The notes below the pieces were generated by a model. The model had not been told where the DNA came from. It made no database searches and was given only the letters and a program-made list of their open reading frames with translations. Made by a program: the position numbers and the translations under genes. Of a stretch of DNA of 64,000 nt, positions 12,524 to 60,877 are shown in pieces (the stretch's first letter is position 1; the number at the start of each line of letters is the position of its first letter). Source of the DNA: an uncultured Ignavibacteriales bacterium (lineage in GTDB: Bacteria > Zixibacteria > MSB-5A5 > GN15 > FEB-12); NCBI GenBank assembly GCA_964371785.1, contig CAYJOL010000004.1:185588-249587 (forward strand), read 5' to 3'.

Positions 12524-12589
12524 AAGACAGTATACGCAAGCCCCCTCTTCCCTCTTGTAAACTCGACCGGCACAGGCTATATTCCGCCT

Positions 12590-39410: not shown

Positions 39411-39427
39411 ACCTCTTCTATCGTAAC

Positions 39428-39453: not shown

Positions 39454-39607
39454 ATACCCTCTTCCCCCCTGCAATCAATCACATTTGTTAAGCTGTTATC
39501 GGGCTGACTCATACCGAGCTGCTCGATTTTCTTCAAAAAGATGGTTGTCTTTCAATTTCAGTTCAGTAATTTCAAGTCATTATCACAATAGAAGTAATGA
39601 GGGAACG

Positions 39608-44629: not shown

Positions 44630-44825
44630 CGAGTCCTCCTTGAACTGCTTTGTGCTCTTAGAATTATTCCACTAGAACAACTGAATGTCAAGATTGTTCA
44701 ATCACATTCCCGAGGTAAACCGGCGCAGTATTGGACGAGGATATGAATTAGGGTAGATGTAGTCTTTAATTGTGCCCGATTCGGCCAGTCTGTGCCCAGA
44801 CTGCCCCGGGGTACTCTGGGGTACT

Positions 44826-46505
44826 CTATTGTATCACATTGGGACCAGGATTGACGATATGGGCTGGGAATTGGAAGGTAAACGTCGTCCCCTTACCGAC
44901 TTCCGAGTCAATCTGAACGGTAGCCGCGTGATTGGTGATAATATTGCCGACCGTAACCAATCCATAACCATGTCCTTTTTCTTTGGTCGTGAAATGGCTT
45001 CGGAAGAGCTTCTCTTTCAATTCGGGGGCGATGCCAACCCCATTATCAGATATTGAAAAATGAAGCATTTCATTTGCTGAAAAAGTCCTGACCAGGATCT
45101 TGCCGGTAGGTCGATGTGCCTCCTTGATCGCGTCAGCGGCATTATTGAGCAGGTTAAGCAGGAGTTGCGCAATCTGCTGGTCATCCATGTCGGTCTTCGG
45201 TATGCTCTTATCCAATTGGGTAGTGATTGTGATGTCGCTGAATTTCTTCTGGACGGACACAAACGACAACACATCGGTGATTACCCCGTTCAAATCTCGA
45301 AGAGCTTTCGAAGTATTGAGTCGTGAGTAGTCCATGAGTCCCGACGTAAACCGTTCCATTTTGGCCACGGTCAGTTTAAGTTTCTCAAGAGTCCCGGCAA
45401 GCCGCTTCAAGTCGTTCTTCTGTACGGCCCTCTCAGCCAGTTCCACGCCGCCGAGTACTAGTCCGAGGAAGTTGTTCAATTCGTGCGCGATGGATGATGC
45501 CATGAGTCCCTTTTCGGCAAATTTCTCGAGATCGAACAAACGCTGTTCACTTTGCTTCTGATCGGTAATATCGTCTACTGTCACCGCCAGGTCATGATTT
45601 CCGTCAGGTCCCCTGAGGACCTTGCTGACTCTGATGTTGTATATTCTCTCACGCGCTCCCTTCTTGGCCACCATGTTCTCCAGTGTGCGCCCCTGGTTAT
45701 CATCACGCGAGGAATCTATTCGGGATAACCAACCCGGGAAAGTTTTCTCCGAGAAGATCAAGTTGATCGGGACATCCTGTAAAGACTCTGGTGACTGCAG
45801 ATTCGATTTCAGTTCGGCAAGCAGTTGAAATCCCGATGAGTTCACTTTTTTCAATCGACCGGAGACGTCGAACACAAAAACTCCCTGCTTTACGGAGTCC
45901 AGAATCGAGAGATGCCACGTATTCAGTTTGGATATTTCTATGAACAGAAAGGAATTCGCGATAAAGGGGGTCACGGTATTGACGATGGTAGTGAGCAGGT
46001 CACAGTCGCTGGCAGTGCAGGCCTTTCCCGCTACGCGATTGCCCATTCCCAGCAGACCGATCATCTTTCTATCGTGTATGAGCGGGATCACCACGTGCAC
46101 ACCACATTCCTGGAGAATGTAGCCATAATTGGCGAGGGAACCGGACAGATTGAGATCGGCAACCAACTGCGGTCCTGTTGACCGCGTGAAATAGTCTTCC
46201 AGCTCTTCCGTCAACAGCAGGCATGAAAGCAGATCGCTCTGTTTGAATCTGCCGGTGCCGAAGTAGATCTGTCTCTGTTTGTTCGAGCTTGGATTGAGCA
46301 GCATGGCAAAAGAGCTTGTCACGGAGAATTGACCACATAGAGTGAGCAACAAGACGTCAATGAGTCCGTGCAGATCGGGCTTGTTGGAAAACTGTCGGGC
46401 AAGCTTGGAGAGGGCGTCGAGCGCCAGAATATTCCTCTCCTGAATGGTCGATCCCTCAGGGCTTCCGACTACAGTTTCTTCGTGTTTGTGCGATGTAGAC
46501 GTCAT
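44826..46505 (-). CDS. Soluble sensor histidine kinase (GAF-like and PAS-like N-terminal regions, HisKA, HATPase_c), no cognate response regulator nearby
   Basis: H-box SSIAHELNNFL, N-box LLNLLNNAADAI, G1 SDNGVGI and G2 GHGYGL. There is no TM segment. The start ATG overlaps the upstream STAS stop (ATGA at 46502-46505). Confidence 0.85.
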   Translation of the reverse strand: MTSTSHKHEETVVGSPEGSTIQERNILALDALSKLARQFSNKPDLHGLIDVLLLTLCGQFSVTSSFAMLLNPSSNKQRQIYFGTGRFKQSDLLSCLLLTEELEDYFTRSTGPQLVADLNLSGSLANYGYILQECGVHVVIPLIHDRKMIGLLGMGNRVAGKACTASDCDLLTTIVNTVTPFIANSFLFIEISKLNTWHLSILDSVKQGVFVFDVSGRLKKVNSSGFQLLAELKSNLQSPESLQDVPINLIFSEKTFPGWLSRIDSSRDDNQGRTLENMVAKKGARERIYNIRVSKVLRGPDGNHDLAVTVDDITDQKQSEQRLFDLEKFAEKGLMASSIAHELNNFLGLVLGGVELAERAVQKNDLKRLAGTLEKLKLTVAKMERFTSGLMDYSRLNTSKALRDLNGVITDVLSFVSVQKKFSDITITTQLDKSIPKTDMDDQQIAQLLLNLLNNAADAIKEAHRPTGKILVRTFSANEMLHFSISDNGVGIAPELKEKLFRSHFTTKEKGHGYGLVTVGNIITNHAATVQIDSEVGKGTTFTFQFPAHIVNPGPNVIQ

Positions 46506-46870
46506 AAGCAGTTTTTTGCACCACAGGAAACCAGGGCTTCCTGCACGCTCCCTTTTACTGTCAGATAATCAAGCAGGTCAAGAACTCTGAGGACATGGAC
46601 TATAGTCTCCGATGGACCGGCCAGGATAATATCGCCGCCCAACTCCCGCGAGCCCTCTACGGTGCCAAGTATTGACCCGACTCCCGCTGACGAGATAAAC
46701 TCGAGCTCGCTCATATCTATGACGATGTATCTCACCCCTCTGGATTGAATCGAGTTGACAATCTCCACCATCTCGTGAGCATTGTTGTTATCAAGCATGC
46801 GGGCAGTCTTAATGACAACAACGTCGTTACTGACTTCGCGGGTGATAATATCAAAGTCACTCATCGGCAC
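46502..46870 (-). CDS. STAS-domain protein (anti-sigma-factor antagonist, SpoIIAA/RsbV-like)
   Basis: 122 aa. DMSELEFISSAGVGSILG carries the conserved phosphorylatable Ser context (F-I-S-S-A-G). Confidence 0.8.
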   Translation of the reverse strand: MPMSDFDIITREVSNDVVVIKTARMLDNNNAHEMVEIVNSIQSRGVRYIVIDMSELEFISSAGVGSILGTVEGSRELGGDIILAGPSETIVHVLRVLDLLDYLTVKGSVQEALVSCGAKNCL

Positions 46871-47672
46871 GCTCCAGCTTCTTGGTCAGGGTAAGGACGT
46901 TGAGTTGACCCTGTTTGCGCTCGTAATGCATTCGGTCGGTCATTCGTTTGATCAGTATCACGCCGATTCCATGATTCTGCCGGCGATTTATCACCTGCGA
47001 GGGATCGAAATCGTCCTTATGAGGGGTTGGATCGAATGCCTTCCCTTTGTCGATGAATCTGAATTCGGCCTCGTCCCCGTTCAATTTGACGGACACGTCG
47101 ACCGCGTCTCGCTCGGCAAGCCCCGAGTGCAGCCTTATGTTGGTGGCAACTTCGTAGAAAATAGTCTCGAGTTCGACAATCTCTCGGTCACCGACACCGC
47201 GCCGGACAAGGTGCTGCCGAAGCTTCTTCATCGCCGATGCAACGGCCATCGGACTCAGCTCAACGCGCAGTAATAATTCCTGGCCGTATTCTTCGGGACT
47301 GACCGTTGATCTGGTGACGCTGCAAGTATGCTGTTGGACGTTGTGCAGATAGAAAAGATCAGCCAGATCCAGCACTTCGAGAACTTTCAGAAAATTAGGA
47401 TGCAAATTATCCAGACGCAAATCGACTCTGCGCTCAGCGCATCGCGATCGCACGTTCCAGAGAATGTTGATGTGCGTGGACGTAATACGCTCTAATCGTG
47501 AACAATCAAGAACCACTTCATTCGGATTCGTCTGCAATAGATCATCCACCGCCGCCAGAAGATTTGAGATGGTGCCGGGGGTAAGTTCCGCGGGGACCTT
47601 GATTTTTGTCCTATTGTCAGTATCAGCGAACATGCACTTCGCTTTCTTTGCTAATAACTCTTTTATCGTCAC
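46857..47672 (-). CDS. Fusion protein: N-terminal STAS-like domain plus C-terminal RsbW/SpoIIAB-type Ser kinase (HATPase_c_2-like)
   Basis: The N-terminal half VVLDCSRLERITSTHINILWNV...FLKVLEVLDLADLF is STAS-like. The C-terminal half IFYEVATNIRLHSG...FRFIDKGKAFD...NHGIGVILIKRMTD is anti-sigma kinase-like. Confidence 0.65.
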   Translation of the reverse strand: MTIKELLAKKAKCMFADTDNRTKIKVPAELTPGTISNLLAAVDDLLQTNPNEVVLDCSRLERITSTHINILWNVRSRCAERRVDLRLDNLHPNFLKVLEVLDLADLFYLHNVQQHTCSVTRSTVSPEEYGQELLLRVELSPMAVASAMKKLRQHLVRRGVGDREIVELETIFYEVATNIRLHSGLAERDAVDVSVKLNGDEAEFRFIDKGKAFDPTPHKDDFDPSQVINRRQNHGIGVILIKRMTDRMHYERKQGQLNVLTLTKKLERADE

Positions 47673-49251
47673 GGAATCCCGTCCATTTCATAGCCAGTAA
47701 GGTAATATCGTCAAATTGCTCGGTATCCCCGACAAATTCAGTATGTTTTCTCATTATGCGGTCTGTGAACTCCGCAGGTGTGTCCGCTCGGGCTCTCACA
47801 ACCGCGTCCATCAGCCGGTCCATACCGAACTCTTCCCCGTTCTTTCCGGGGGCTTCGTTAATCCCGTCGGTGTACTGAACCAGCCAGTCACCGGGGGCCA
47901 AATCTATGACTCCTAATTCGATGCGGCTGTCAAACGGTTCCGGTGGCATCATGCCCAGCGGGTAACCTTTCGTTTTGAAAAGCTCAGCCTGACCGGTCGC
48001 TCCGGATATTTTGATTAGCGGGTTGTGGCCGGCCGAAGCAAAACTGAATTTGCCGGTAGGAATATCAAGGATTCCAAGGAACATCGTCACAAACATACCT
48101 TTTTTGATATTTGTCAGAATCTCACGATTGACTTCCGCCAGCAACTTGTCCGGCTCAATGTTATTTCTCGCTATCCGCTTGACGATATCCCGTGTCAGAA
48201 GCATCACGAGCATACCAGGCAGAGATTTGCCCGAAACATCGGCCACCAAAAACCCTATTCTGTTGTCATCGTACTCAATAAAGTCATAATAATCGCCGCC
48301 CACCTCCCTGGCGCTGCGATATGATCCGGAGAATTCGAACCCCGGTCTGACCGGATAACTACGCGGCAGGATATTGGCCTGAATCTCGCGGGCAATTTCC
48401 AATTCGCGGGCAATCCGCTCCTTCTCAATAATCTCATGTTGAGCCGCGTTCAGCTTCCGGCCCATTACACGAAGCGTCTCGGACAGGTAACCAAACTCAT
48501 TCCGGTTGGTCACCGGGACATCAAAAGCGATATTGTCGAAATTGATCTGTTTGAGCGAATCCGTTATCTGCTTGATCGGCCGAAGTTTCCTATGCAGCAG
48601 AACCATGGTCACCGGTATTCCCACAAGAAGCAGCACAATAGTAATTGTGATGACCGTGACGATCGATTGACGTCGTGCTATCATAATCTGACGGGCGGAA
48701 GAGGCTATCCCCAATTGACCTACCAGAATATCATTCTCCCTGATCGGTACGGTGATGAGTATTGTATCCCTGACCAGTCCAAACGCCTCAGCATCATGCA
48801 GAACATCGCTGAACTGATTCGATTTAACGACTTGAAGGCTGGATGTCGAAATGACTTTCTTGATATCGGTATGGGCAAGGAACCTGCCGTCCCTGTCGGT
48901 TATTCCGACCCAGCGAATGTCCGGATTGTCGGACGCAAGTTTTCGGCATATGTTATTCAGCAACAGAGCATCAGGGCCATTGGTCGACAGTATCAGTTTG
49001 CCGGCCGGTCCGGAATATGAACGCGCCTGGATAAGGAGCTTCTCCACTTCGGCGCGCGTGACGGTCTTTACATATCTATCCGTCATGATATAACCGGCCG
49101 CAATCATCAGCAGAAAAATTATCGCCGATATATACAGTGAGAATTCAACGCGAATCGAACGTTTGAATTGCTTCGGTTCGGGCCAATCGTGCGCAAGCAC
49201 GCTCTTATCGTTCGAATCCATAAGACAGTTCCTGCATTTTGCTGATTTCAT
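47623..49251 (-). CDS. Membrane-bound PP2C (SpoIIE/RsbU-type) phosphatase with extracytoplasmic sensor region and HAMP linker
   Basis: Two TM segments (LYISAIIFLLMIAAGYIM; IVTVITITIVLLLVGIPVTMVLL) bracket a loop of about 150 aa. A HAMP-like region follows (RKLRPIKQITDSLKQI...EFGYLSETLRVM). The PP2C core is GGDYYDFIEYDDNRIGFLVADVSGKSLPG...YTDGINEA. An alternative start at ATG 49221 is possible. Confidence 0.85.
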   Translation of the reverse strand: MKSAKCRNCLMDSNDKSVLAHDWPEPKQFKRSIRVEFSLYISAIIFLLMIAAGYIMTDRYVKTVTRAEVEKLLIQARSYSGPAGKLILSTNGPDALLLNNICRKLASDNPDIRWVGITDRDGRFLAHTDIKKVISTSSLQVVKSNQFSDVLHDAEAFGLVRDTILITVPIRENDILVGQLGIASSARQIMIARRQSIVTVITITIVLLLVGIPVTMVLLHRKLRPIKQITDSLKQINFDNIAFDVPVTNRNEFGYLSETLRVMGRKLNAAQHEIIEKERIARELEIAREIQANILPRSYPVRPGFEFSGSYRSAREVGGDYYDFIEYDDNRIGFLVADVSGKSLPGMLVMLLTRDIVKRIARNNIEPDKLLAEVNREILTNIKKGMFVTMFLGILDIPTGKFSFASAGHNPLIKISGATGQAELFKTKGYPLGMMPPEPFDSRIELGVIDLAPGDWLVQYTDGINEAPGKNGEEFGMDRLMDAVVRARADTPAEFTDRIMRKHTEFVGDTEQFDDITLLAMKWTGFRDDKRVISKESEVHVR

Positions 49252-51229
49252 TCTCGGTCCGCCTGATGTAGTCGGCTATTTCATCGTTGTTGGGCTGGAG
49301 TTGTGCCGCCTTCTTCCAGACGCTTACCGCCTCTTTCAGTTTATTCTGGCCATATAACTCGACACCAACATACTTATATGCGTTAACCAGATAGGTCCTC
49401 ACTGATTGGTAATCCGGTGAGAGAACTTCCACTTTCTCCCAATACTGAATCGCCTGTTTAAGGTCGCCGTTCTTGAAATGCTTCTGGGCAGTTTCATAGT
49501 CCGACTCAACCTCCCGGGTCATTTCAGCGCTGAGCGACTTAGGCAGCTCTTTGGCAACAGCCACTTGCTGACCCGGCTGACCTTTAATCGACTGAGCCGC
49601 CAGAATCTGTCTTCTCAATTCCAGGCAGTAGCCGTGGCCGGCAAACAGTGAAAGAGCCGAGTCAACTGCATTAAGTGCCGACACCAGATTCTCTTGTGCG
49701 AAATCTCGCGCCGCTCTCTGTCGGAACCTCTCGAACTTCACCTTCTTGACCGCCAGTTGAACGCCCTGGTCATCGGGTGCGAATTGAGCAAGTGCGGAAA
49801 CAACTGACTGAGCCTCGTCGGTCTTACCATAACTCAGCAACGAGTCAGCCAGCCAGAGTCGAGTTGAAATTGACTCATCGCGCAGGAAACTCTGCTGAAT
49901 CGCATCGTTGGCCTTAGTCAAAAGTGAGGCTGCTTCAGCCGAATTCAGTCGCTCGTTCAGAGCTATGCCGGCGTAATAACGGACTCCGAGATAATCGGCC
50001 AGCGCCAATCTGGCTTGCGCCGAGTCAATCGCCTGACTGTAGCGCTGTCCGCTGAGCAGATCATTCAGGCGTTGCTTACACTCACTTGCCAGAGCCGAGA
50101 TTGCCGTGGTATCCATATTGCCGCTGCGACTTAAGAACAGGGCACGGTCGAAGGCGCTTGCCGCGCCCGTCAGTTCGCCCTCCCCCAGCATCTGTTTGCC
50201 TTGACGGATTAGATCGCCTATCATCTCGCTGTTGTGTTTTTGTAATTGATCGCTCATCAGTTGGTTGAATTCCTGTTCCTGCTTCCGGGCCCGGGTCTCC
50301 CTTCGAACAGATGCCGGAGCACCGAATGCCGAGGTAAGACTGAACATGTGAACACTCCCCATATCCCGCTGAACGAGCGAATAGTCAAAACTTATTGAGC
50401 GATAGCTCAGCCCCCCTCCCACCGCCAACTTGGAGTCGTTTAAGCCTCCGCGCAACCAGACCGCGTTTAGAAAGCTGTATTCCATGCCGAGCGACAAACG
50501 CGAACTGACCTGATTGGTCTTATCCACGCCGGCGAAGACTGTCGCTTCCTGCTCCCACGACGGATTCGGCAGAATTGTGGCTGAAACGCCGATAGCTACT
50601 TGTGTCGGGAAACTGATATCCTGCTGATCAAGCTTCATCTCCGGTTTTACCGCATTCCGAATCTGCACCGCTAGATCGAACCGGGTCACTCGCTCGGAAC
50701 CTGTCGTAACGGTGCGAATTGCCGCCAGATTCAGTCCCGGTGAAGAGGTTGCTGAATAACTATCAAGCGAGTGTTGCTCCAGCTGGATCGCCAAACCAAT
50801 ATCAAAACCCGAGAGACGGCGTCCGTAGGCAAGGTAAATCGCCATGCGATTATCCGAAGTCTCTCCAAGCAGCAGGTTCGAAGCATCACGCTGTTCGATA
50901 CCGTCGACTCCCAGGCGGAATACTCCGATTCCGAAGGATCCCCAGTCAAGAGTTGGCACCGCCACACCTGCGTATTGATAAGCAACATCCGATTCAAACA
51001 ACCGGGTATAGAATCCGGTAATCGCCGTCCGCTCAGCCCGGGCGAGTCGGGCCGGATTCCAGAACGCCGCCACCGCATCGGCCGGAGCTGTCCACGATGC
51101 ACCGCCGAGCGATAATTCCCTCGCCCCGGCGCCGAATGAGAACGGGGACACCGTGCCGCCGTCGTTTGCGCCCAGACCAACACCCGACAGCGCAAGCAAT
51201 AATCCGATTGACAGTAACCAGCGTTTCAT
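49205..51229 (-). CDS. Fusion of an N-terminal outer-membrane beta-barrel (PorV/PorP-SprF/UPF0164-like) with a C-terminal TPR-repeat region
   Basis: The start is taken at ATG 51229 (MKRWLLSIGLLLALSGVGLGA signal peptide), overlapping the giant gene's stop as ATGA. About 300 aa of alternating beta-strand pattern carry GAGARELSLGGA...AFWNPARLA and end in FSLTSAF. About 350 aa of helical TPR-like repeats follow (e.g. AIQYWEKVEVLSPDYQSVRTYLVNAY, AVSVWKKAAQLQPNNDE). Confidence 0.6.
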   Translation of the reverse strand: MKRWLLSIGLLLALSGVGLGANDGGTVSPFSFGAGARELSLGGASWTAPADAVAAFWNPARLARAERTAITGFYTRLFESDVAYQYAGVAVPTLDWGSFGIGVFRLGVDGIEQRDASNLLLGETSDNRMAIYLAYGRRLSGFDIGLAIQLEQHSLDSYSATSSPGLNLAAIRTVTTGSERVTRFDLAVQIRNAVKPEMKLDQQDISFPTQVAIGVSATILPNPSWEQEATVFAGVDKTNQVSSRLSLGMEYSFLNAVWLRGGLNDSKLAVGGGLSYRSISFDYSLVQRDMGSVHMFSLTSAFGAPASVRRETRARKQEQEFNQLMSDQLQKHNSEMIGDLIRQGKQMLGEGELTGAASAFDRALFLSRSGNMDTTAISALASECKQRLNDLLSGQRYSQAIDSAQARLALADYLGVRYYAGIALNERLNSAEAASLLTKANDAIQQSFLRDESISTRLWLADSLLSYGKTDEAQSVVSALAQFAPDDQGVQLAVKKVKFERFRQRAARDFAQENLVSALNAVDSALSLFAGHGYCLELRRQILAAQSIKGQPGQQVAVAKELPKSLSAEMTREVESDYETAQKHFKNGDLKQAIQYWEKVEVLSPDYQSVRTYLVNAYKYVGVELYGQNKLKEAVSVWKKAAQLQPNNDEIADYIRRTENEISKMQELSYGFER

Positions 51230-54200
51230 CGAAGTACTGCTACCTTCCTGCGGAAGCTCTCCGACTTGCCCGAGGTGTAGTGGGCCGTTATCCGGCAGAA
51301 ATAGGTACCGGGCAATACTTCGCGTCCGGCATCGTTGATTCCTGACCAATGATCGCTCTGGTGCGCACCGGCCACCCTGAATTCGTGGTCCGCTATGGTT
51401 CCCACAAAGTCGCCCGTGATCGAGAACAGGTCGATGTCCACATAGGCATCTTCGGGCAGGACAAAACTGATGGCCGTTTGTTCACCGCGGGACGGATTAA
51501 ACGGATTCGGATAATTCACAAAGGACTGTTCCAGACCCTCACTTGCCACGGACACCTCGATACCACGAACCGGATACGTACCCTCGACCAGTGACGGATA
51601 GATGGCCGTCAGCAAATACTGATCGGACATCTCCAGACAGCTGGAATCCGAAATTATTACCTCAAAATTGCCCTGGTCAGCGTCACTTCTGATATCGCCG
51701 ACAATCTGTAGCGTTTTAGAAGAACCTCGTTCTATAATAGACGGTGACGCCAGTACGAAGACAATGGAATCTCCTTGCAACAGGCTGTCCACCGCCACGA
51801 CCTGACCGTCTACCATCAGAGATATCGAATTCAGAAGGTCCGATGCCCGTGCCGGTGCATATACCGACGACGTATGCCGCAGCAGCGAACCGGTCACCCT
51901 GTTTAGCGCGACATTTCCTTGCAGAATCGGCGACGAGTATGTGAGGTCCGACTCAAAAAGTCTCACGCTCTGCTGACCGCGGCTGACCACCTGAACGGGA
52001 AGCTGGACGGGTGAGACACTCGGTCGACCAGCCGGACGATAAATGGACGTTGTACTTGTCGCTAACGGGTACTGACCTCCGCAGGAAGCGTCAACTACTG
52101 TCGAAACCGTTCGAATCGTGTCGGTGCAGTCCACCGTCCCGATTGTCTCTGCCGATCCCAATACCAGTTTGAAATTGTCAAACGGAACCATGACCTCGAT
52201 GTCTGCCATCAAATCGAGGGTAATGTCTGACCCTGGTGTAACCACCACACCGGTGTCGGAGAAGATGAATTTCGCCGCTCCGTTGTAGAGCAGTATGAAC
52301 TGCTGGTAAGCAATCGAACCACCGTTCATTCGGTAGCCGATTCGGTCAAACATGTCATTTGGATAGAGCGGTTTCCCGACCGAGTCAAGGCAGTCCACCA
52401 CCATATACCTTATCCGAACTGACGAGAAACCGGAGTCGACAGGGTAAGAGAAATTGAGTCTCATGAGCGTCAGTGAGTCAACTCCGGCCACGACCGAAAC
52501 CGGAAGCATCGGAGTCAAGCATATCAGCGGACTTTCGGCCGGCTGCTTAAAATGGGCCACACTAGAAGTTATGGGGAAGGCCTGTCCCGTTGCCAATGTC
52601 GCGGTGTCGCTAGCCGAATTAATGAGCGAGCCGGAGCTCAGATCGCGTACGATGAAGGCGGTGCTATCGGTGATTTCAAGCGAAAAACCGGCAATCACGG
52701 GTACTGCGCTGACATCTACACAGATACTCAAAGAGTCTTCATTGCCGGGACTCAATGTTATGGGAGAACTAAGGGTGAGATGGAGTCGAGTAGAATCAAC
52801 GTCAAACGTCACCTGTTCACCCATTATCGTCTGTCTCCGCATAATACGGACGGTCTCGAATAGATCGCCTGGACTTACGGGCGTGCCGTACTCATCGCGA
52901 AACAGCAGGGATATCGAGCTGAGTTGGATCTGCGAAGTACCCGGCGCACCCGGATGACGCAGGTTCAACTGTTCCACCGCCACATTCCGCTGACCAAAAT
53001 TGACTGCGCCTGACAACAGATTGGTCCACGCAACCATCATTTCCTGCGATGGGTCGTCTACCCGGCATGTTGCAGTTCTCATAGGAAAGCTCGTGCCCGC
53101 TTCATATGGTACGGTCAGCCCAGTGTTGTTGTCTACACAGATGAGATCCGAGGCAACGGAAAGCACCATATCAAATGAAGCCACTGTAGCCGAACTGTCG
53201 ATATCTACCAGCAATGACAAGTTCTTCTGTACTCCCGGCAGGTACACTATCGGACTGTCGAATCTGAAAGTCACCGAAGACTGGCTGGGGACCGAATCGA
53301 TTACCGCCAGCGTTTGGTAGCCGCTTAAGAGCACCATCCGGCTGAATACATTGGACGCAGGACATGGAACTCCTCCGTCGGTTTCGACGGTGAGCGTGAC
53401 GCTGTCTGTCTTCACCATCGCAGTAGTGGAAGTAGTATCCGGTTGAACGATTCTGATATTCAGCGGAAATACGTTGGTTTGCCCTCGGTTGACCGATGGC
53501 GGAATCGAATTTGCGAACTGGATCATCATCTGCGACGGAGAAGACTGGACCGTTATTTCGTCCGTCTGAATAATGACCGAGTATTCGCCGAGCGAAGGGG
53601 CCGTGGCGCGAAGTTGCCAGGATACCCGTCCTACCCGGGCCGCCCTGTAGTAAAACGTAAAATCTGTGCTTTCTCCGGCTCCGAGATTGACCGGCCCGGC
53701 AAAGCCGCTATCGAGCGTCACGACACTTGAATCACTCAGGCCAACAATCAATCCGCTGACGCCATCGACGGCCGAGTCGAGAAGATTGGTGACGATCAAG
53801 TGCAGCGGTATCGATTGGCCTACTGAATACGTTGCCCCCCCCAGCGCGTAAGCTACACGAAGACTCGATGTTGATATCGTGAATTGTCCCCCGATACTCA
53901 TTGCTGCGTCCCTCGGTCCGTCGTTGTCCGACGCATATATACATCCGTTTACCGGAAGCATGAGATCAATCGTCCTGGCCGCATTTGCCGCAGATGCGAT
54001 ATCCGCCACTATCATCAATGCAGGAACCGGGGTTGATACCATGAGGTCCAACGACGACACGGACCACAGCCCCGCGTCAAAATTGAAGGCTCCGATCATC
54101 GAATCCGACGATTGCCAGGCGTCATCGCCATTGAGATCCAACCACAGTTCCATGTTGCTTATGTCCGACGAGTCCGCGTCTCCCCTGTTCGAGACTGTAA

Positions 54201-57200
54201 TTGACGTGATGTCATCCGTCAGACTGCCGTTGGGCGCCGGAACAAAACGAGCCAGCGTGATCGATGTATCGCCGGGACTCACGGAACGTGCTTTTTGGGC
54301 AAGCTTTGTGTACTGAATGCTGATTGAACCGTCGGCCACAAGATATCCGCCTCCGGTAAGCGGAAAATCGCCGTTCACGGTCGCGGCCGGCGTAAAGGTC
54401 AAGTCGATGTTTGACGAAACCTGCAGCCTCAAGCTGTCGCTGTCGATTACATCGAGCGGCACATCACCAACCACAAAGAAGTACGCGAGCGACTCCGGCG
54501 GGAGGATCTGGTTCAGACCATTCAGGTTGAGCAGTCCATCGACAAATGAGCCGGTTGCCACCAACGAATCGCCGCCAAACACCCGGTCATTATCCGTGTC
54601 CATGTATAACGATATCGAGCCGAGTTCATAATCCGAGTACGCCCGACTTGATGCGGTGTGAGAGCTATTGGTCAGACGAATCGCGTCAAGGTCTTGCGGC
54701 TGGCTTACGAATCCGTTGTACAAGGCAAAGGTCAGCAGGACATTCTCATCGCTTCCCGGAGGGAGGGACGATGAACTCTGTGGGATCGCGAACGCGGTTA
54801 CCCGGTCTGATGGAAATACCACCAACTCATTCGGATTGCTCACACCGGTATCATCAGGTCCAATAGTACCGGATGCATATTTCACTCCTTCGGCCGGTAT
54901 CTGTATCTTAATTGTTCCGACATTGAACTGCTTGTCGAGCACATTGACGACCACAAAGAATCGCCTTCCCGGCAGAGGTATGGAGCACGCGAGTTTCGAT
55001 ATACTCCAATTGGAGCCTGAGGCGGTGAAAGCCCCCAGGAGGGAATCATCGGAAGTGAAACCGTCGCCCGTGCGATCGGCAAAGAGCGCGATTGATGAAA
55101 GCGCATCGACTTCATCCAGCGTGCCAATATTGGCAATTGTCAGCTCGTTGAGCACTGCCGGAGAATAACCATTGGACGGTAATGTGAAATCAAGCACTAT
55201 CTTGCGGGATTGTCCGCCGAATAGAGGAGATGATTCGATCGCCCGAATGGCAACTGCCGCGGCAGGAAATGCGTCTATGAGCGAGGAGGCACTATTGATC
55301 AGCGGATAGCTGGCTTCAGTCCGTATCGGAAGATTGAAAAACAGGTCGGTAGAGTCCTGAAGTGAGAGACTGATACGATTGCCGTTTTTACTGTTAGTCA
55401 AACTCATGAAGGCGACGATTGACAGTGTCCGTGTAATTCCGGTCCCCTCAAACGCAAACCCGGATGTCGCAAATGTGGCTCGACCGTTCAGGACGGTTGC
55501 TTTCGCCATTAAGCTGTCCGTACCGCCAATGGCTTGGTTGTTGTCATCGTTGTCCGAATAAAGATAAAGCGAATCTATTTGCGAATCCAACTGCAACTGG
55601 GTGGCGCCACTGGCATCAGTAGCCGTCACCGTTACCGTAAGACTGTCCAATTCGGTACCGGAGGTATAATTATTGACGAGGTTGAATACGAGTAGCGGCG
55701 CCGTCACTGAGCCCGGTATTAGTGTTCCGGCAGGCACATTGACAATACTCAGCCCGACCGACTCGATCGGCTCGATTTGAATCGTGTCAATCGGAAGAAC
55801 AGCGGTATCGATTGGTCCATCGTTACCGGAAGCTACTTCTATGCCGTTTCTCGGGACGAAAAACGAAATGGTCGCGCCGTTTACCGGATATCCGGCTAGC
55901 CTCCCGGCTATATAAAAGCGGGTTTGCGAGGTGGTCAACGGACTCTGCAGCCCGCTGAGCGTCCATCGATCGCCGGTGAATGTCAGCCGGCCCTGACGGG
56001 TCTCCGTCGACGGTCCATTCCACACGTCGTTTCCATTATCGCGATAGAGCATCAATGAATCGAAATCGGAATTAGTGGCGGTACCGGCATTGGCGATGGT
56101 CATGACTTGCAGACTGTCGCTTGTGTATCCGTTACGAGGAAGATCCATTATCATGAGCAGGTAAGTAGAGTCACCCGGCGAGATGAGCCCTGTTCCCGTG
56201 TGTTGCCGCGAAATCTGTGATGCTACCATGCCATCAACAAAACACCAACCCAGGGAGTTCACTGTATCCGGACCGTCGATTGTCGTGCCATCGAGTGTCG
56301 TGATATCAGACGAAGGCAACACCATGACATCCAGCGAGTCCCCATCGCGGGCGAACGAAGAAATCGCGATTGTCGCCAGAAATGTAAGTCCTGACCCGGC
56401 CGGGACTCGGAGTGGCGGAAATGTCAATGTCTGAGGAGAAGCAGTAAAAGGTGTGACCGCAATCAAACTGTCGAAACCATCCAGCGTTGAATCACCATCT
56501 CTGTCGACATAAAGGTAGATCGAATCGATTTCCGCGAGGATTTGAGCTTCGGTTCCCACACCATGAGAATGGTTCCTCAGCGATATGCTGGTCACATCTT
56601 TATCGCGCAGGAAATCGTTCGTCAGCCGAAAAGCGAGGACCTCCACTCCTGACTGTCCCGGGTGAATGGCATTGGTGCCGATCGGAATACTGGTGATTGA
56701 GAGAGCCTCTATGACCACCGCGCCACTGGTATCTGTCACGCCGTCGATACTGCTGCTGGCTGATACATACTCCTGACCCGATGAACCCGCGATAAACGTA
56801 CCTGAAGAGTCAATCGTGCCTTTCCCGTTTCGCAAACCCCAGCTCAGCGTGCCGACATCTGTCAGGTTAAATGAACCGTCGTAACCGACCGCACTGAACA
56901 GTAAGGTGTCACCAATCTTCACTGTAGCCGAGTCAGGTGTTTCGCTCAAGTACATCAACCGACCTGGGGTTACCTGAATGCTGCTAGTAGTATCCGCGAT
57001 TCCGAAAATCTCGCTCACGGCGGCAATTCCTCCGCTGCCGACTGTTAGGGGAATAAATTCTCCGTCGGTATTGATATCACCGATTCCTCCGAGCGTCGAC
57101 CAGTCGATCGGACCAAGCCCCACAGCATTGCCGTCGCCGTCGGTGCCACCTAGCGTAAAGACAAGCGTACTATCAGTGCTGATGACCGCGGAATCCGGAC

Positions 57201-60200
57201 TGATTATCATCGTTATGGGTCGACCTGCCTCCACTTCAAGCACTGACGAGGAATCAATAGGTCCCAATGCGGAGATCACAACCACTCGCGCTGTTCCTGT
57301 AGTGACTGCGTCAAACAGACCCGCGCTGTCAATCGAGCCAATCGCGGACGTCAACGACCAGCTGAGACTTCCGGGATCCTGGCTATTACCGTGAGCATCA
57401 AACCCGCTCACGCTGAACTGCCGCACCGAATCAGCTGAGACAATAGTGGTATCCGGTGAGATCGCAATTTCCTGAAGCGCGCCTGCGGTGACGCTGATGA
57501 AGTCGGACGTATCTGCGAGCGTGAGGCCGGTAAATGCCACCCGACCGTTGCCAACGAGCGTCGGTGAGAACAGGCCGGTGGGGCTGATGGTCCCGATATT
57601 CCCGATGACGGACCAGGTTCCGACTACGCCGACCGATGTCAAATTGTTGTCGGCATCAAATTCGTCGATGCTGAACTGAATGGATGTGTCGGCCGAGACC
57701 GAATCGACCCGTGGTGAGACTGCCAGTCTGGCCGGCATACCCGACTCGCTGGTAATCACACCGGTGGAATCGATAACCGAGGCCGAGTAGGTCGCCACCA
57801 CTCGTCCTGTACCAGGAGTAAAGAGTTCAAGAACGGCCGAAACTCCGTCCGACGTACCTAATCTACCTACCGAATCCGGCCCGAGCATACTCCAGCTTAC
57901 GGAGACATCGCCAAGCAGATTATTTCCGGAATCATAGCCCCTGCAATACAAACTGGTAGTATCATTATCTGTCGAAAGAGTTGAATCGTTAACGGCCGTT
58001 CCGGCCACTGTCTCGATTCTAATGTGATTCAGGGCGCCGCTGGGAATGATCGCCACTGTGCCGGAGTCCCTGAATGACCCGTAATTCGCGATAACATAAA
58101 ACAAAGGCGGAGATGGGTTCGGGCCCGCACGATACATCCCGCCGGGTGCTATACTGCCGCCAGGATCAGTGGTAGTCCAAGTTACCGAGTCCGTGAGGCT
58201 TTTAACCAGATTGGAATCACTGTCATATCCTGTGGCGGAGTATTGATACGATGAATCCTCGATCATTGTGTTCACCGAAGGGGAAACTGCGATATATGCT
58301 GGGACGCCCGGTAACACTGAGATCGTATCGCTGATATTCGATGAGCCCAGGTCGCTGATGACCCGGATGAACCCCGGGCCGGCGTGTGTTGGCGTAAAGA
58401 GACCGGCAGGGTCGATACTTCCGATCCCGTTTAGCACCGACCAGGTCAATGATCCCACATCGGTCACGGGATTACCATTGCTATCTGTACCGATAGCGGC
58501 AAACTGAAGTGAGGAGTCGGCAGACACGGTGTCGCGCGATGGTACAACTGTCAGATTACTCAGCGAACCTGCGACCACGTGCATGACAATAGAAGTGTCT
58601 TTGACGGAATTTATGCTCGACTTGACGATGATTGTCCCGCTACCGATCTGATTCGGAGTGAACAGACCACTGTTGTCGATCGTGCCTGTGGCAAACGTAT
58701 GAGACCACAAAAGACTCCCTGGATTGGCCGGCAGTCCAGCGCTGTCCATCGCAATCACCGTAAACTGGTAAGTGGAATCCGCATACAATGTGTCAAGCTC
58801 CGGAGTTATAAGAAGTGAGATTAGCTCACCAGACTCGTAAGCTCCCATGTCGGGGGCGGAACCGGAATATGGCAGGCCGACGTTCGTTCCCGCATCTATG
58901 CCGGGTGAGCCCTGTGCCATAAAGAAATCCCCTCCCGAAGGATCAAGGAGCTGCGGGTTTTTGATCAGACAACTCAGCCCAAGCAGCGCTCCTCCCGACG
59001 CTGTAGCGCCATTGGCAAAGAACATCGAATAAGTTACTGTGTTGAGGAGCCCGGCCCGAACACCGGCGCTGTCGTGTCCCTGGAAAATGTCGTTGGTGAT
59101 ACTAAGCAGGCCGCCGTCGGTTTTGAAGCCATAGTGCTGGTTGCTGTAGAAAGTATTGTTGTACACGTTTGCGCCCCCGCTTGCAACTTCGTATACCCCC
59201 GAATTCCCATTAAAGGCAAAGACATTTTTTGTCAGATCAACCGGTTGGACCGAGTAAAGACCATAGCGTCCCGCCCCATTCAACCGACAGTATGCTACTG
59301 TCACCCCTGACCCGGTGATCTGTATGTTATCGCTCCCGGCGTCGCTGACGGATATTTGTTCCCAGGAAATGTAGTCGCCTGCTATCCGTACTCCGGTTGT
59401 AAGCCCGTTAGCATTCAGTAGCACCGAATCCAGGACACCGAGGTATACGATGCGATCATCGTTAGCTATACCGGCATCGGAGATGATAACTGAATCAGCG
59501 TAGGTACCGGTCGCCACATGCACCGTATCACCGGGAAACAGAAGGGAATCGGCGCGGCTGATCGTGCGCCAGGCTGTCGCCGTAGACTTGCCGCTCGCAC
59601 TGTCGTCGCCGACAGGTGAAACAAAGTAGACATTGTATTTCTCTTTCGCGCCCATATCGGGGGCAGCGCCGTTGAAAGCGTAGCCGAGTGGAGTCCCGGC
59701 GTCAATTTCCTGGGCGCCGACCTTCAGGTCAAATCGACCGGCGGCCGTATCGACAAATTTAGGAAGCACCGAAATTCCTCCGGCCGAATCGATCACACCC
59801 ACATAATCACCCCCCGGGTTCCCCCATACATTGTTGAAGCCGCAGATGTTTTGAACCGGCCCGGTGATGCCGCGATTCTTGTTCTGGGTGATTATGTTGT
59901 TGAATATCCTGTCGGTCGTCACCGCGGCTTTTAGTTCGATGCCATGGTCGTTGGCAGCATGAATCGTATTGTTGTAAATCCGGTTCATGCTTCCGGAGTC
60001 TTCATTCTTGATGCCGTCGCCGCCACTGGCGTATATCACATTGCCGACCAGCACATTATTGGTGCCGCCGATATGTATCCCAATCTTGTCAATGTCGTGA
60101 ATGTAGCACTGCCTGATAATCGTGAAGTGGCCATTAAGAAGGATACCATCATTGCGCGTGTTGGTAATCTCAATGCCCGCCAGCGAAAGGTAACTGCCTT

Positions 60201-60540
60201 GAATATCAAGGGCAGGTTTGTCGGCATTGCTCAGATTGAGGATAACCTTCCCCTTACCGACTCCCCTGAACACAATCAGATTTCCACTGCTACCCGATGA
60301 CTGCAGCGTGATCGAGTTACTAACAGCATAGGTACCGGGCAGAATATTTACGGTGTCTGCCCGAATTAGAACATTGGCGTGACTCTGATCGCCCTGATCG
60401 ATGGACTGCCAGGCAGTCGCGGGCGTAAGTCCGTCCAACGCATCATCGCCGGTTGGGGAAATATAATAGTTCACTGCCCCGACGTGGGTCGCCAGAAGAA
60501 AAAGGAGTATACTGAGAAGCTGCCTTTTATTCATCGCCAT
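51226..60540 (-). CDS. Giant (3,104 aa) secreted surface protein: signal peptide, two beta-helix units, 8 Big_2-like Ig repeats, about 11 beta-sandwich-like modules, T9SS-type C-terminal sorting domain
   Basis: A single uninterrupted ORF. Signal peptide MAMNKRQLLSILLFLLATHVGAV. See the sub-features for domain evidence. Confidence 0.9.
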   Translation of the reverse strand: MAMNKRQLLSILLFLLATHVGAVNYYISPTGDDALDGLTPATAWQSIDQGDQSHANVLIRADTVNILPGTYAVSNSITLQSSGSSGNLIVFRGVGKGKVILNLSNADKPALDIQGSYLSLAGIEITNTRNDGILLNGHFTIIRQCYIHDIDKIGIHIGGTNNVLVGNVIYASGGDGIKNEDSGSMNRIYNNTIHAANDHGIELKAAVTTDRIFNNIITQNKNRGITGPVQNICGFNNVWGNPGGDYVGVIDSAGGISVLPKFVDTAAGRFDLKVGAQEIDAGTPLGYAFNGAAPDMGAKEKYNVYFVSPVGDDSASGKSTATAWRTISRADSLLFPGDTVHVATGTYADSVIISDAGIANDDRIVYLGVLDSVLLNANGLTTGVRIAGDYISWEQISVSDAGSDNIQITGSGVTVAYCRLNGAGRYGLYSVQPVDLTKNVFAFNGNSGVYEVASGGANVYNNTFYSNQHYGFKTDGGLLSITNDIFQGHDSAGVRAGLLNTVTYSMFFANGATASGGALLGLSCLIKNPQLLDPSGGDFFMAQGSPGIDAGTNVGLPYSGSAPDMGAYESGELISLLITPELDTLYADSTYQFTVIAMDSAGLPANPGSLLWSHTFATGTIDNSGLFTPNQIGSGTIIVKSSINSVKDTSIVMHVVAGSLSNLTVVPSRDTVSADSSLQFAAIGTDSNGNPVTDVGSLTWSVLNGIGSIDPAGLFTPTHAGPGFIRVISDLGSSNISDTISVLPGVPAYIAVSPSVNTMIEDSSYQYSATGYDSDSNLVKSLTDSVTWTTTDPGGSIAPGGMYRAGPNPSPPLFYVIANYGSFRDSGTVAIIPSGALNHIRIETVAGTAVNDSTLSTDNDTTSLYCRGYDSGNNLLGDVSVSWSMLGPDSVGRLGTSDGVSAVLELFTPGTGRVVATYSASVIDSTGVITSESGMPARLAVSPRVDSVSADTSIQFSIDEFDADNNLTSVGVVGTWSVIGNIGTISPTGLFSPTLVGNGRVAFTGLTLADTSDFISVTAGALQEIAISPDTTIVSADSVRQFSVSGFDAHGNSQDPGSLSWSLTSAIGSIDSAGLFDAVTTGTARVVVISALGPIDSSSVLEVEAGRPITMIISPDSAVISTDSTLVFTLGGTDGDGNAVGLGPIDWSTLGGIGDINTDGEFIPLTVGSGGIAAVSEIFGIADTTSSIQVTPGRLMYLSETPDSATVKIGDTLLFSAVGYDGSFNLTDVGTLSWGLRNGKGTIDSSGTFIAGSSGQEYVSASSSIDGVTDTSGAVVIEALSITSIPIGTNAIHPGQSGVEVLAFRLTNDFLRDKDVTSISLRNHSHGVGTEAQILAEIDSIYLYVDRDGDSTLDGFDSLIAVTPFTASPQTLTFPPLRVPAGSGLTFLATIAISSFARDGDSLDVMVLPSSDITTLDGTTIDGPDTVNSLGWCFVDGMVASQISRQHTGTGLISPGDSTYLLMIMDLPRNGYTSDSLQVMTIANAGTATNSDFDSLMLYRDNGNDVWNGPSTETRQGRLTFTGDRWTLSGLQSPLTTSQTRFYIAGRLAGYPVNGATISFFVPRNGIEVASGNDGPIDTAVLPIDTIQIEPIESVGLSIVNVPAGTLIPGSVTAPLLVFNLVNNYTSGTELDSLTVTVTATDASGATQLQLDSQIDSLYLYSDNDDNNQAIGGTDSLMAKATVLNGRATFATSGFAFEGTGITRTLSIVAFMSLTNSKNGNRISLSLQDSTDLFFNLPIRTEASYPLINSASSLIDAFPAAAVAIRAIESSPLFGGQSRKIVLDFTLPSNGYSPAVLNELTIANIGTLDEVDALSSIALFADRTGDGFTSDDSLLGAFTASGSNWSISKLACSIPLPGRRFFVVVNVLDKQFNVGTIKIQIPAEGVKYASGTIGPDDTGVSNPNELVVFPSDRVTAFAIPQSSSSLPPGSDENVLLTFALYNGFVSQPQDLDAIRLTNSSHTASSRAYSDYELGSISLYMDTDNDRVFGGDSLVATGSFVDGLLNLNGLNQILPPESLAYFFVVGDVPLDVIDSDSLRLQVSSNIDLTFTPAATVNGDFPLTGGGYLVADGSISIQYTKLAQKARSVSPGDTSITLARFVPAPNGSLTDDITSITVSNRGDADSSDISNMELWLDLNGDDAWQSSDSMIGAFNFDAGLWSVSSLDLMVSTPVPALMIVADIASAANAARTIDLMLPVNGCIYASDNDGPRDAAMSIGGQFTISTSSLRVAYALGGATYSVGQSIPLHLIVTNLLDSAVDGVSGLIVGLSDSSVVTLDSGFAGPVNLGAGESTDFTFYYRAARVGRVSWQLRATAPSLGEYSVIIQTDEITVQSSPSQMMIQFANSIPPSVNRGQTNVFPLNIRIVQPDTTSTTAMVKTDSVTLTVETDGGVPCPASNVFSRMVLLSGYQTLAVIDSVPSQSSVTFRFDSPIVYLPGVQKNLSLLVDIDSSATVASFDMVLSVASDLICVDNNTGLTVPYEAGTSFPMRTATCRVDDPSQEMMVAWTNLLSGAVNFGQRNVAVEQLNLRHPGAPGTSQIQLSSISLLFRDEYGTPVSPGDLFETVRIMRRQTIMGEQVTFDVDSTRLHLTLSSPITLSPGNEDSLSICVDVSAVPVIAGFSLEITDSTAFIVRDLSSGSLINSASDTATLATGQAFPITSSVAHFKQPAESPLICLTPMLPVSVVAGVDSLTLMRLNFSYPVDSGFSSVRIRYMVVDCLDSVGKPLYPNDMFDRIGYRMNGGSIAYQQFILLYNGAAKFIFSDTGVVVTPGSDITLDLMADIEVMVPFDNFKLVLGSAETIGTVDCTDTIRTVSTVVDASCGGQYPLATSTTSIYRPAGRPSVSPVQLPVQVVSRGQQSVRLFESDLTYSSPILQGNVALNRVTGSLLRHTSSVYAPARASDLLNSISLMVDGQVVAVDSLLQGDSIVFVLASPSIIERGSSKTLQIVGDIRSDADQGNFEVIISDSSCLEMSDQYLLTAIYPSLVEGTYPVRGIEVSVASEGLEQSFVNYPNPFNPSRGEQTAISFVLPEDAYVDIDLFSITGDFVGTIADHEFRVAGAHQSDHWSGINDAGREVLPGTYFCRITAHYTSGKSESFRRKVAVLR
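51229..51528 (-). other. T9SS type-A / FlgD-Ig-like C-terminal sorting domain of the giant protein
   Basis: FVNYPNPFNPSRGEQTAISFVLPEDAYVDIDLFSITGDFV...LPGTYFCRITAHYTSGKSESFRRKVAVLR. Confidence 0.8.
51556..53865 (-). repeat. About five further degenerate modules of the same general type without Asp-rich loops, aa ~2226-2995
   Basis: Recurrent module openings include GQSIPLHLIVTNL, NRGQTNVFPLNIRI, NFGQRNVAVEQLNLRH, VAGVDSLTLMRLNFSY and SRGQQSVRLFESDLTY. Boundaries are approximate. Confidence 0.4.
53866..56694 (-). repeat. Three tandem copies of a ~318-aa double module (A+B) with Asp-rich loops, aa ~1283-2225
   Basis: A-type loops are IDSIYLYVDRDGDSTLDGFDSLIA, IDSLYLYSDNDDNNQAIGGTDSLMA and LGSISLYMDTDNDRVFGGDSLVA. 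B-type loops are FDSLMLYRDNGNDVWNG, LSSIALFADRTGDGFTSDDSLLGAF and ISNMELWLDLNGDDAWQSSDSMIGAF. B modules end in ASGNDGPIDTAV, ASGTIGPDDTGV and ASDNDGPRDAAM. Module starts recur every 315-320 aa. Confidence 0.7.
56701..58827 (-). repeat. Eight tandem Big_2-like (bacterial Ig-like group 2) repeats of about 88 aa, aa ~572-1280
   Basis: The recurrent pattern is (I/L)xVSPxxxT(V/I)xADSxxQFxAxGxDxxGNxxxxxGxLxWSxxxxIG(S/T)IDxxGLFxxxxxGxxxV. An example is LTVVPSRDTVSADSSLQFAAIGTDSNGNPVTDVGSLTWSVLNGIGSIDPAGLFTPTHAGPGFIRV. Confidence 0.8.
58831..60471 (-). other. Two tandem right-handed beta-helix (pectin-lyase-fold / DUF1565-like) units, aa ~24-570
   Basis: YYISPTGDDALDGLTPATAWQSI...ILPGTYAV and YFVSPVGDDSASGKSTATAWRTI...ATGTYADS caps are followed by N/G-rich helical turns. 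Each unit ends with IDAGT...APDMGA(K/Y)E. Confidence 0.7.
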
Positions 60541-60877
60541 GTTTAGTGATTCCCGGTCAATGAATTAATTGTCGGAAAGTCGCTTGCCGAATTAAGCTCT
60601 TTGCTCGAATTGCTTCCGGACGAAGAATCAACCCGGGTAAAAAGAGGTCGCCTGTTTCAGAGTGAAACGAAACTTGCCGAAAACGTTCTGACTTAACCGG
60701 GCGGATGTAGATTAGCCTTGTTCGGTCAGTTCAGGTGGATACGGTAACCCCGCTTTCGCGCTTTCCCCTGAGTTTAAGCTTGCCTATCGCCCAGTCTCGA
60801 TACTAATTCATTAGCATAGGCAACCAGGAATCACATAAATTCGGCCAGCGCACCAAACGTTAAAGTGGAGGATAACT

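Follow-up and report, generated by a model that had tools for sequence, protein, structure and literature searches.

We analysed a 64,000-nucleotide (nt) stretch of DNA, called the window below, whose source organism is a Zixibacterium. Six overlapping open reading frames (ORFs), all on the minus strand, span positions 44826 to 60540. They encode, in order, a giant secreted repeat protein (51226..60540, 3,104 amino acids [aa]), a protein that joins an outer-membrane barrel to tetratricopeptide repeats (barrel::TPR; 49205..51229, 674 aa), a membrane sensor phosphatase of the PP2C type (47623..49221, 532 aa from Met11, the longest ORF reaching 49251), a STAS domain joined to a kinase (STAS::kinase; 46857..47633, 258 aa from Met14, longest ORF to 47672), a STAS protein (46502..46864, 120 aa, longest ORF to 46870) and a histidine kinase (HK; 44826..46505, 559 aa). 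A sequence-only reading of the window had listed six minus-strand genes that connect a giant surface protein to signalling proteins. All six are present, profile hidden Markov model (HMM) annotation gave significant family matches for each ORF, and the domain calls hold, with the qualifications given below.

The junctions are tight. ATGA start/stop overlaps, read from the ORF ends, occur at 51226-51229 between the giant and barrel::TPR genes and at 46502-46505 between the STAS and HK genes, as had been described. The other three overlaps had been put at 14 to 50 nt. This is true of the longest ORFs (47, 50 and 14 nt), whereas the supported starts of the PP2C gene (49221), the STAS::kinase gene (47633) and the STAS gene (46864) give 17, 11 and 8 nt. 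Those starts were set from orthologue alignments and from same-genome gene calls, taken from contigs with identical sequence (L078; loci compared with the window carry L numbers). The barrel::TPR ORF can be extended to a TTG at 51349, and the ATG at 51229 yields a signal peptide and is the start chosen by gene callers.

Upstream of the cluster, a 337-bp non-coding region (60541..60877) separates the giant gene from mscL (60878-61342, plus strand; NCBIfam equivalogs, 167 bits). The region had been noted as preceding the first gene; it is real, divergent and common to both genes. It presumably holds the operon promoter, and a promoter scan found no strong sigma-70-like site in it. Downstream, the 7-bp-stem hairpin of the earlier description (CAGTCTG-GGCA-CAGACTG, 44786-44803, minus strand) lies 23 nt past the stop codon of the HK gene. 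It lacks a U-tract and was not called on the minus strand by the terminator scan; it may mark the operon end, though it is no canonical intrinsic terminator. Terminator-like sites inside the cluster were about as numerous as expected (15 seen, 14.3 expected) and none stands out; Rfam, tRNA and terminator scans of the window gave nothing relevant. It is the overlaps that suggest transcription of the six genes as one operon.

The giant protein starts with a hydrophobic segment read as a signal peptide. Two beta-helix domains follow (residues ~25-300 and 305-570; Pfam Beta_helix/NosD), then about eight Ig-like repeats (residues 564-1290; weak Big_2 matches), about six repeats of 160 aa (1250-2235) and about four of 165 aa (2310-2965). 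The repeats were mapped by windowed BLAST; whole-protein self-BLAST showed the diagonal only. Orthologues in relatives are 2,147 to 3,362 aa long and are encoded upstream of the barrel gene.

The last 104 residues (51229..51540) form a C-terminal domain (CTD) for which Pfam offered no convincing model (FlgD_ig, E 0.13). TIGR04183, a model of type IX secretion system (T9SS) sorting domains, was matched by 25/25 orthologous CTDs at E <0.1, the best of them at 9.7e-8. Another window protein, 13..3339, has a CTD that passes both PF18962 and TIGR04183, and the giant CTD of the window shares 40% identity with it (E 1e-10). On the strength of these matches we treat the giant CTD as a divergent, type-A-like sorting domain, and secretion of the giant would then be T9SS dependent. 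The CTD is the best-conserved part of the protein, with a median identity of 59% versus 37-45% elsewhere. Its best PDB profile match was the PorU C-terminus (E 0.01), and we considered whether it was specifically PorU/PorZ-like, that is, a retained and uncleaved anchor. As the canonical CTD of 13..3339 matches the same PorU/PorZ models, the resemblance is generic and was not used as evidence.

Two further secreted window proteins pass PF18962/TIGR04183, namely, 13-3339 (plus strand) and 21023-22969 (plus strand), and the organism thus uses the type-A sorting signal widely. The former is a beta-helix protein whose ORF begins at the window edge, and the latter is PNGase-F-like.

The barrel::TPR protein consists of a signal peptide, a barrel (residues ~25-302, nt 50324-51157) and a TPR arm (residues 306-669, nt 49223-50314). 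It passes the PorV/PorQ family model NF033709 (92.4 bits versus a cut-off of 90, residues 71-341) as well as TPR families, and it fails the equivalog models NF033710/NF033711 (PorV, 29.2 versus 250 bits; PorQ, 36.2 versus 220; PorV2, 50.3 versus 325). An AlphaFold2 model built from 115 sequences (predicted local distance difference test [pLDDT] 89.5) shows the barrel, then a 44-residue helix, then a TPR solenoid to residue 669. Foldseek ranked two PorV chains of the Flavobacterium johnsoniae SprA translocon first and second (8gl6_F and 6h3i_F; E 2e-10 and 9e-9; target-normalised template modelling [TM] score 0.66-0.67), the barrel superposing best on them, and sequence matches in the PDB were to PorV only. 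The earlier call of an outer-membrane barrel::TPR protein was thus borne out by the family model and by the predicted structure, which confirmed a putative PorV/PorQ-family barrel fused to a TPR arm of ~370 aa. The fold points to PorV-like handling of the giant CTD by the barrel. More than 120 orthologue clusters of ~670 aa were found. The terminal TPR module is 59% identical versus 40-49% in the rest of the protein.

Paralogues with the same ~100-aa terminal TPR module are encoded in genomes that also carry the operon (L074, 9884-10750; L075, 5045-5878; L076, 1899-2957; L077, 4845-5327). They show a signal peptide, the TPR module, a linker and a C-terminal region that by eye resembles a small beta-barrel, which is the reverse of the domain order of barrel::TPR. 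It seems that outer-membrane proteins reuse this terminal module as a periplasmic adaptor.

The phosphatase has a first transmembrane segment (residues 37-55), an extracytoplasmic Cache-like domain of ~138 aa (residues 58-195, nt 48667-49080), a second transmembrane segment (residues 200-218), a HAMP/coiled-coil region and a SpoIIE-type PP2C domain (PF07228, 156 bits). A phosphatase with an extracytoplasmic loop and a HAMP domain had been claimed. The PP2C domain and both hydrophobic segments are clear; the Cache and HAMP matches are sub-threshold in the window protein (sCache_3_2, E 0.003; HAMP, E 0.013) and are called outright in homologues (sCache_3_2 in L084-L086). The catalytic motifs EVGGDYYDF, ADVSGKSLPGM, TDGiNEA and DDITLL are conserved in the orthologue alignment, and relatives in the PDB are RssB, Rv1364c, the 'putative serine phosphatase' 6k4e and SpoIIE. 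Identity in the periplasmic domain (55%) is near that of the catalytic domain (59%). Elsewhere in the window, a second SpoIIE-type PP2C catalytic domain is encoded by a 188-aa ORF (8368-8934, plus strand), which has no sensor or STAS partner nearby and may be a truncated or mis-started gene.

The next protein had been read as an RsbW-like kinase, and its kinase part bears this out (HATPase_c_2, 55.1 bits versus a cut-off of 27.4). It is not a plain kinase: a STAS domain (STAS_2, 44.8 bits) makes it a fusion of STAS with a GHKL serine kinase of the RsbW/SpoIIAB type. The N-box, G1, G2 and Ser64 are conserved, and Foldseek matched the AlphaFold2 model (pLDDT 80.7, predicted TM score 0.76) to SpoIIAB, RsbW, UsfX and SiaB. 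The STAS call for the fifth protein also stood (PF01740, 59.4 bits; TIGR00377, 59.8 bits, above the cut-off of 53.45). In an alignment with SpoIIAA, the serine of its 'FISSAGVG' motif, numbered Ser59 in the 120-aa protein, falls on the position occupied by Ala in the 1tid/1til variant; we take this position to be the phospho-site Ser58. At least 90% of orthologues keep the motif, as do distant lineages, and the protein is presumed to be the phospho-substrate and switch protein.

The last gene encodes an AtoS/ZraS-like HK with a GAF-like N-terminal domain, PAS, HisKA and HATPase_c domains and no receiver domain. HATPase_c scored 79.8 bits; HisKA (19.5 bits) was below its cut-off, and the GAF and PAS matches were sub-threshold. 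Orthologues conserve the H-box 'AssiaHeLNN' together with the N and G boxes, in agreement with the earlier call. A hydrophobicity scan found no strong transmembrane segment, and the HK was called cytoplasmic. Some relatives have hybrid HKs with a fused receiver domain; the tblastn match of these variants to the window HK is limited to the N-terminal sensor region (residues ~23-342). No cognate response regulator was found in the window or conserved flanks, and sigma factors were likewise missing from the window and from every conserved flank among 50 loci. There is no GGDEF gene, and the HK occupies the output position. Our scans of the 64,000 nt of the window found neither sigma factor nor response regulator nor T9SS core gene, as the earlier reading had stated.

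Almost all homologues of barrel::TPR come from metagenome-assembled genomes (MAGs) of Zixibacteria. Searching one representative genome per species gave 70 loci, 66 of them with a barrel::TPR orthologue. The six genes are colinear on one strand in 49/66, cut by contig ends in 15/66 and decayed in 2/66, so that order, strand and overlaps are kept in 49 of the 51 informative species. The flanks vary, each gene family in them being shared by at most 5 of 50 loci, which gives the unit sharp borders. The junction between barrel::TPR and PP2C is the most invariant coupling (overlap in 52/52 loci), that between giant and barrel is an ATGA in 24/28, and the other junctions are of 30 nt or less in at least 96% of loci. 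One MAG labelled Candidatus Eisenbacteria (JBDRNT01) carries two complete six-gene copies on different contigs (L036 and L051).

The two decayed loci lie on closed Zixibacteria MAG chromosomes. In L066 (CP070756.1) the PP2C gene is truncated mid-domain and the switch and HK genes are lost; L069 (CP070766.1) retains a TPR fragment devoid of a signal peptide, PP2C, kinase and a degenerate STAS gene, with no giant gene or barrel. We considered them as natural dependency tests, but both are deletion remnants that say little either way. Several loci carry the labels Ignavibacteriales, Calditrichota or Acidobacteriota, which look like binning or labelling noise.

The cluster also extends beyond Zixibacteria, to two or more further uncultured lineages. 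A profile search with barrel::TPR over 1.84 billion cluster representatives (E ≤1e-30) yielded 494 proteins, with Zixibacteria orthologues at 740-947 bits and a second tier of proteins of the same length at 230-365 bits. In this tier, the gene order giant, barrel::TPR, HAMP-PP2C, kinase, STAS, HK recurs in L084 (Krumholzibacteria) and L083, and its first five genes in L087/L088. The order is also kept in L085 (GCA_030431975.1), where a single 800-aa protein (12227-14629) unites Cache-HAMP-PP2C with the RsbW-like kinase and an extracytoplasmic function (ECF) sigma factor gene (18057-18644) lies two genes downstream of the HK. Between these lineages, identity is 25-33% for barrel::TPR, 30-33% for PP2C and 24-26% for the C-terminal two-thirds of the giant, including the CTD, and the N-terminal heads of the giant are swapped for other domains (CBM96, CLIPPER, CARDB). 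On the basis of these gene orders and identities, the conserved core is the cargo stalk with its CTD, barrel::TPR, PP2C, kinase, STAS and, usually, the HK. The question raised earlier, whether barrel::TPR and PP2C/STAS/kinase genes recur beside giant sorting-domain genes in related genomes, is thus answered in the affirmative across the phylum and beyond it. None of the outcomes that the earlier reading had named as refuting it was observed.

Two other loci deserve mention. An apparent barrel::TPR-Cache-HAMP-PP2C fusion (P0257, 1,259 aa; L086, 6569-10348) comes from a long-read metagenome assembly and has frame-shifted tails next to a broken kinase gene. It was rejected as an indel artefact, as these features speak against a real fusion. 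In a distant lineage (L117, 8435-12181, and L118), a 756-aa protein is encoded 18 nt after the gene of an adenylate/guanylate cyclase with transmembrane and HAMP regions. In this protein Pfam calls TPR families only, and it is 22% identical to the barrel::TPR family; it is a second case of a barrel::TPR-like protein encoded beside a membrane HAMP signalling enzyme.

A cluster of this composition, whose tight, translationally coupled order is conserved across lineages, has in our view a roughly even chance of being one functional unit that relays information from the cell surface to the cytoplasm with the HK as output. Export of the giant would begin with Sec and continue along a T9SS-type route via its CTD, and its own PorV/PorQ-family barrel would handle it and probably hold it at the cell surface. 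The periplasmic TPR arm would reach the Cache-like domain of the inner-membrane HAMP-PP2C, so that the state of the surface protein or barrel (loaded, pulled or ligand bound) could set phosphatase activity. The RsbW-like kinase would phosphorylate STAS at the conserved serine and PP2C would dephosphorylate it. As the gene order mirrors siaABCD, unphosphorylated STAS may act on the HK encoded directly downstream, in the way in which the SiaABCD switch protein acts on its neighbouring enzyme, and the HK would signal to a response regulator encoded elsewhere. Flow in the reverse direction is also conceivable, the circuit tuning production of the surface protein. The high conservation of the CTD, the last TPR module and the sensor domain fits protein-protein contacts at these sites. 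The two type-A proteins elsewhere in the window favour the T9SS-type route, and an HK output is favoured by the lack of sigma factors in the window and conserved flanks and by the hybrid variants, whose match to the window HK is confined to its sensor region. In its most specific form, a trans-envelope surface-signalling device in which an adhesin in its barrel reports load, ligand or presence via the TPR arm to PP2C while STAS and kinase gate the HK, the proposal is tentative and, we think, rather unlikely.

Several observations weigh against the relay. The TPR-Cache, CTD-barrel and STAS-HK contacts are ones that we infer, and those between TPR arm and sensor and between STAS and HK are its weakest links. 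The CTD of the window giant scores 17.8 bits against TIGR04183, short of the cut-off of 23, and does not match PF18962. The sorting domain of the earlier call is thus a divergent one that falls short of the curated cut-offs in the window copy. T9SS core genes have not been located in these genomes, which were not scanned whole for them. L087 and L088 have the first five genes and no HK after STAS, an HK-like gene lying divergently upstream, and an HK is thus not an obligatory sixth gene. Cache domains usually bind small molecules, in which case the TPR arm would not be needed. Finally, the kinase could sequester a sigma factor encoded elsewhere.

Some of these points lead to other explanations. 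It is possible, if on the unlikely side, that the genes serve regulation only, from the inside out: the Cache-HAMP-PP2C protein would sense a small extracytoplasmic molecule, switch and HK would control transcription or secretion of the giant and its barrel, and the TPR arm would act in secretion or assembly with no contact to the phosphatase. Autoregulation predicts a conserved operon structure equally well, the sensor resembles single-Cache domains, which are typically small-ligand binders, and T9SS genes of Bacteroidota have the dedicated regulators PorX/PorY/SigP (PMC8754138). What this explanation does not account for is that the most invariant coupling of all, with overlap at each of the 52 loci, is that of barrel::TPR to PP2C, and that conservation is unusually high in the terminal TPR module and in the sensor domain. 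The barrel::TPR-like gene directly after the membrane HAMP cyclase gene in L117 also speaks against it, in one lineage only. Envelope sensing through barrel::TPR, as opposed to regulation of the operon only, is thus a tentative reading. A classical sigma switch, in which the kinase acts as anti-sigma factor on a sigma factor from elsewhere in the genome, with STAS as antagonist and PP2C as input, and the HK is a separate, parallel sensor that shares the operon by happenstance, seems to us unlikely. By sequence and fold, the nearest relatives of STAS, kinase and PP2C are SpoIIAA/SpoIIAB/SpoIIE and RsbV/RsbW, the sixth position lacks an HK in L087/L088, and L085 has its ECF sigma gene nearby. 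Nevertheless, the window and the conserved flanks of 50 loci are devoid of sigma factors, a kinase with its own STAS domain or fused to PP2C is unlike known anti-sigma factors, and the HK is kept beside STAS in Zixibacteria, Krumholzibacteria, L083 and L085.

A role in general secretion was also considered. Barrel::TPR would then be a PorV-type shuttle with a PorW/SprE-like TPR scaffold for all CTD cargo, of which the giant is only the most prominent neighbour, and the signalling genes would regulate the whole secretion system. In favour are the PorV-like sequence and fold of the barrel, the genes for further CTD proteins in this genome and the usual occurrence of barrel::TPR once per genome among the loci fetched. 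Moreover, the SprA-PorV translocon of Bacteroidota has SprE/PorW, a TPR lipoprotein, bound to it (PMC10994853, PMC8754138), and a PorV-TPR fusion could merge these two partners. We nevertheless regard this as quite unlikely, given scores far below the PorV (29 versus 250 bits) and PorQ (36 versus 220) equivalog cut-offs and ATGA coupling to a single giant cargo with a distinct, highly conserved CTD subtype. Decayed copies on two closed MAG chromosomes would be odd for an essential secretion part, and one MAG has two copies on different contigs (L036, L051). That the surface-protein pair and the signalling genes are functionally unlinked neighbours is extremely improbable: order, strand and overlaps are kept in 49/51 informative species and across lineages of 25-33% identity whose flanks are shuffled, and these synteny data exclude chance adjacency.

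Compared with described systems, the barrel is nearest to PorV/PorQ, the shuttle and anchor barrels of the T9SS of Bacteroidota: it passes the family HMM, matches the fold and has a neighbour with a T9SS-type CTD. It differs in its ~370-aa C-terminal TPR arm, its genetic dedication to one giant cargo, its translational coupling to a phosphatase gene, its distance from the equivalog cut-offs and its occurrence in Zixibacteria and Krumholzibacteria instead of Bacteroidota. In F. johnsoniae, the gene of SprB, a very large repeat adhesin, adjoins that of SprF, a dedicated barrel needed for its secretion or display, and other cargo of this species likewise has a PorP/SprF-like barrel encoded beside it. 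The operon described here likewise sets a giant repeat protein beside a dedicated outer-membrane barrel. SprB-type cargo has type-B CTDs and uses PorP/SprF-family barrels, and we know of no signalling genes in the sprB operon, whereas here the CTD is type-A-like, the barrel belongs to the PorV/PorQ family and signalling genes are present. SprE/PorW is a periplasmic TPR lipoprotein associated with the PorV-containing outer-membrane complex (PMC10994853, PMC8754138); in the protein studied here the TPR region is fused to the barrel and is not a lipoprotein, and the likeness is one of TPR architecture.

On the signalling side, the closest arrangement is siaABCD of Pseudomonas aeruginosa, which encodes a membrane HAMP-PP2C, a kinase, a switch protein and an output enzyme with no sigma factor; the unphosphorylated switch protein activates the enzyme encoded by the adjacent gene (PMC7647112, PMC8457831). 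Gene order is the same, PP2C matches the SiaA model with an E of 1.4e-15 and the kinase fold matches SiaB. However, the SiaA model scored 56.9 bits versus a cut-off of 700, the output here is an HK and not a diguanylate cyclase, Sia has no link to a surface protein or barrel, and the place of the switch protein is taken here by a true STAS that bears the SpoIIAA-type serine. SiaC comes from another family and carries its phosphate on threonine. With RsbU/RsbV/RsbW and SpoIIE/SpoIIAA/SpoIIAB the operon shares the same three families, with conserved phospho-serine and catalytic motifs; unlike them, it has no sigma target in the window or conserved flanks, its kinase is fused to a second STAS domain (to PP2C in L085) and its phosphatase is an envelope sensor with two transmembrane segments. 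In Vibrio vulnificus, the RsbRST-type STAS/kinase genes of the stressosome locus are associated with two-component proteins and not with a sigma factor (PMC9237108). In contrast to RsbRST-type modules, there is no RsbR-type sensor or stressosome set here, the input is a membrane PP2C and the context is one of secretion and anchoring.

The sequence-only reading had known of no described system with this six-gene composition, and our full-text searches gave none. They found no paper that combines Zixibacteria with T9SS or type IX secretion, PorV with partner switching or, more broadly, T9SS components with partner switching, and 'T9SS' was absent from the top-ranked papers on T9SS with STAS/SpoIIE/RsbU. 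An apparent 'PorV2' in the literature was a false match, 'PorV' followed by reference number 23. All parts come from known families, and it is their conserved combination and the two fusions, PorV::TPR and STAS::kinase, that seem not to have been described before. Where the genes are annotated at all, the names are unspecific ('hypothetical', 'TPR repeat protein', 'PorV/PorQ family protein', 'RsbU', 'anti-anti-sigma factor'). Our analysis suggests a likely role for six Zixibacteria-conserved genes, among which barrel::TPR is now labelled hypothetical or TPR protein.

If the relay is real in its trans-envelope form, it would represent the first case of a signalling pathway built into a T9SS-type cargo/anchor pair and the first partner switch with a two-component kinase as output, common to several uncultured phyla of the Fibrobacterota-Chlorobiota-Bacteroidota (FCB) group. 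Non-sigma partner switching would be extended to an HK output, and the T9SS repertoire gains a fused PorV::TPR architecture. How bacteria sense the deployment or engagement of an adhesin is largely open, and the operon is a concrete and widely conserved candidate. It also offers an entry point to T9SS regulation outside Bacteroidota, with an outer-membrane cargo carrier coupled to a cytoplasmic phospho-switch. Its parts are small enough for co-expression, pull-down and phospho-assays.

Other genes of the window were noted in passing. About 196 bp past the operon lies a gene for a 66-aa DUF2582 winged-helix protein (44429-44629, minus strand), with an AGGAGG ribosome-binding site and a promoter-like site at 44663-44691 that is the best sigma-70-like match in the region (11/12). 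Among the loci compared it is found downstream only in the closest relatives (L001/L009, L008) and was therefore left outside the core unit. A 560-aa protein with MshEN and DUF4388 domains (32164-33846, minus strand) may be a second-messenger receptor, the MshEN domain being known to bind cyclic di-GMP. At 34131-39536 (minus strand), adjacent genes for a RecA-like protein (266 aa), an ImpB/UmuC-family polymerase (507 aa) and a DnaE-type polymerase (1,045 aa) resemble the imuA-imuB-dnaE2 mutagenesis cassette. The close relative L001 likewise has this cassette on the downstream side of its operon, as far as the locus reaches, the RecA-like gene being cut at the locus end.

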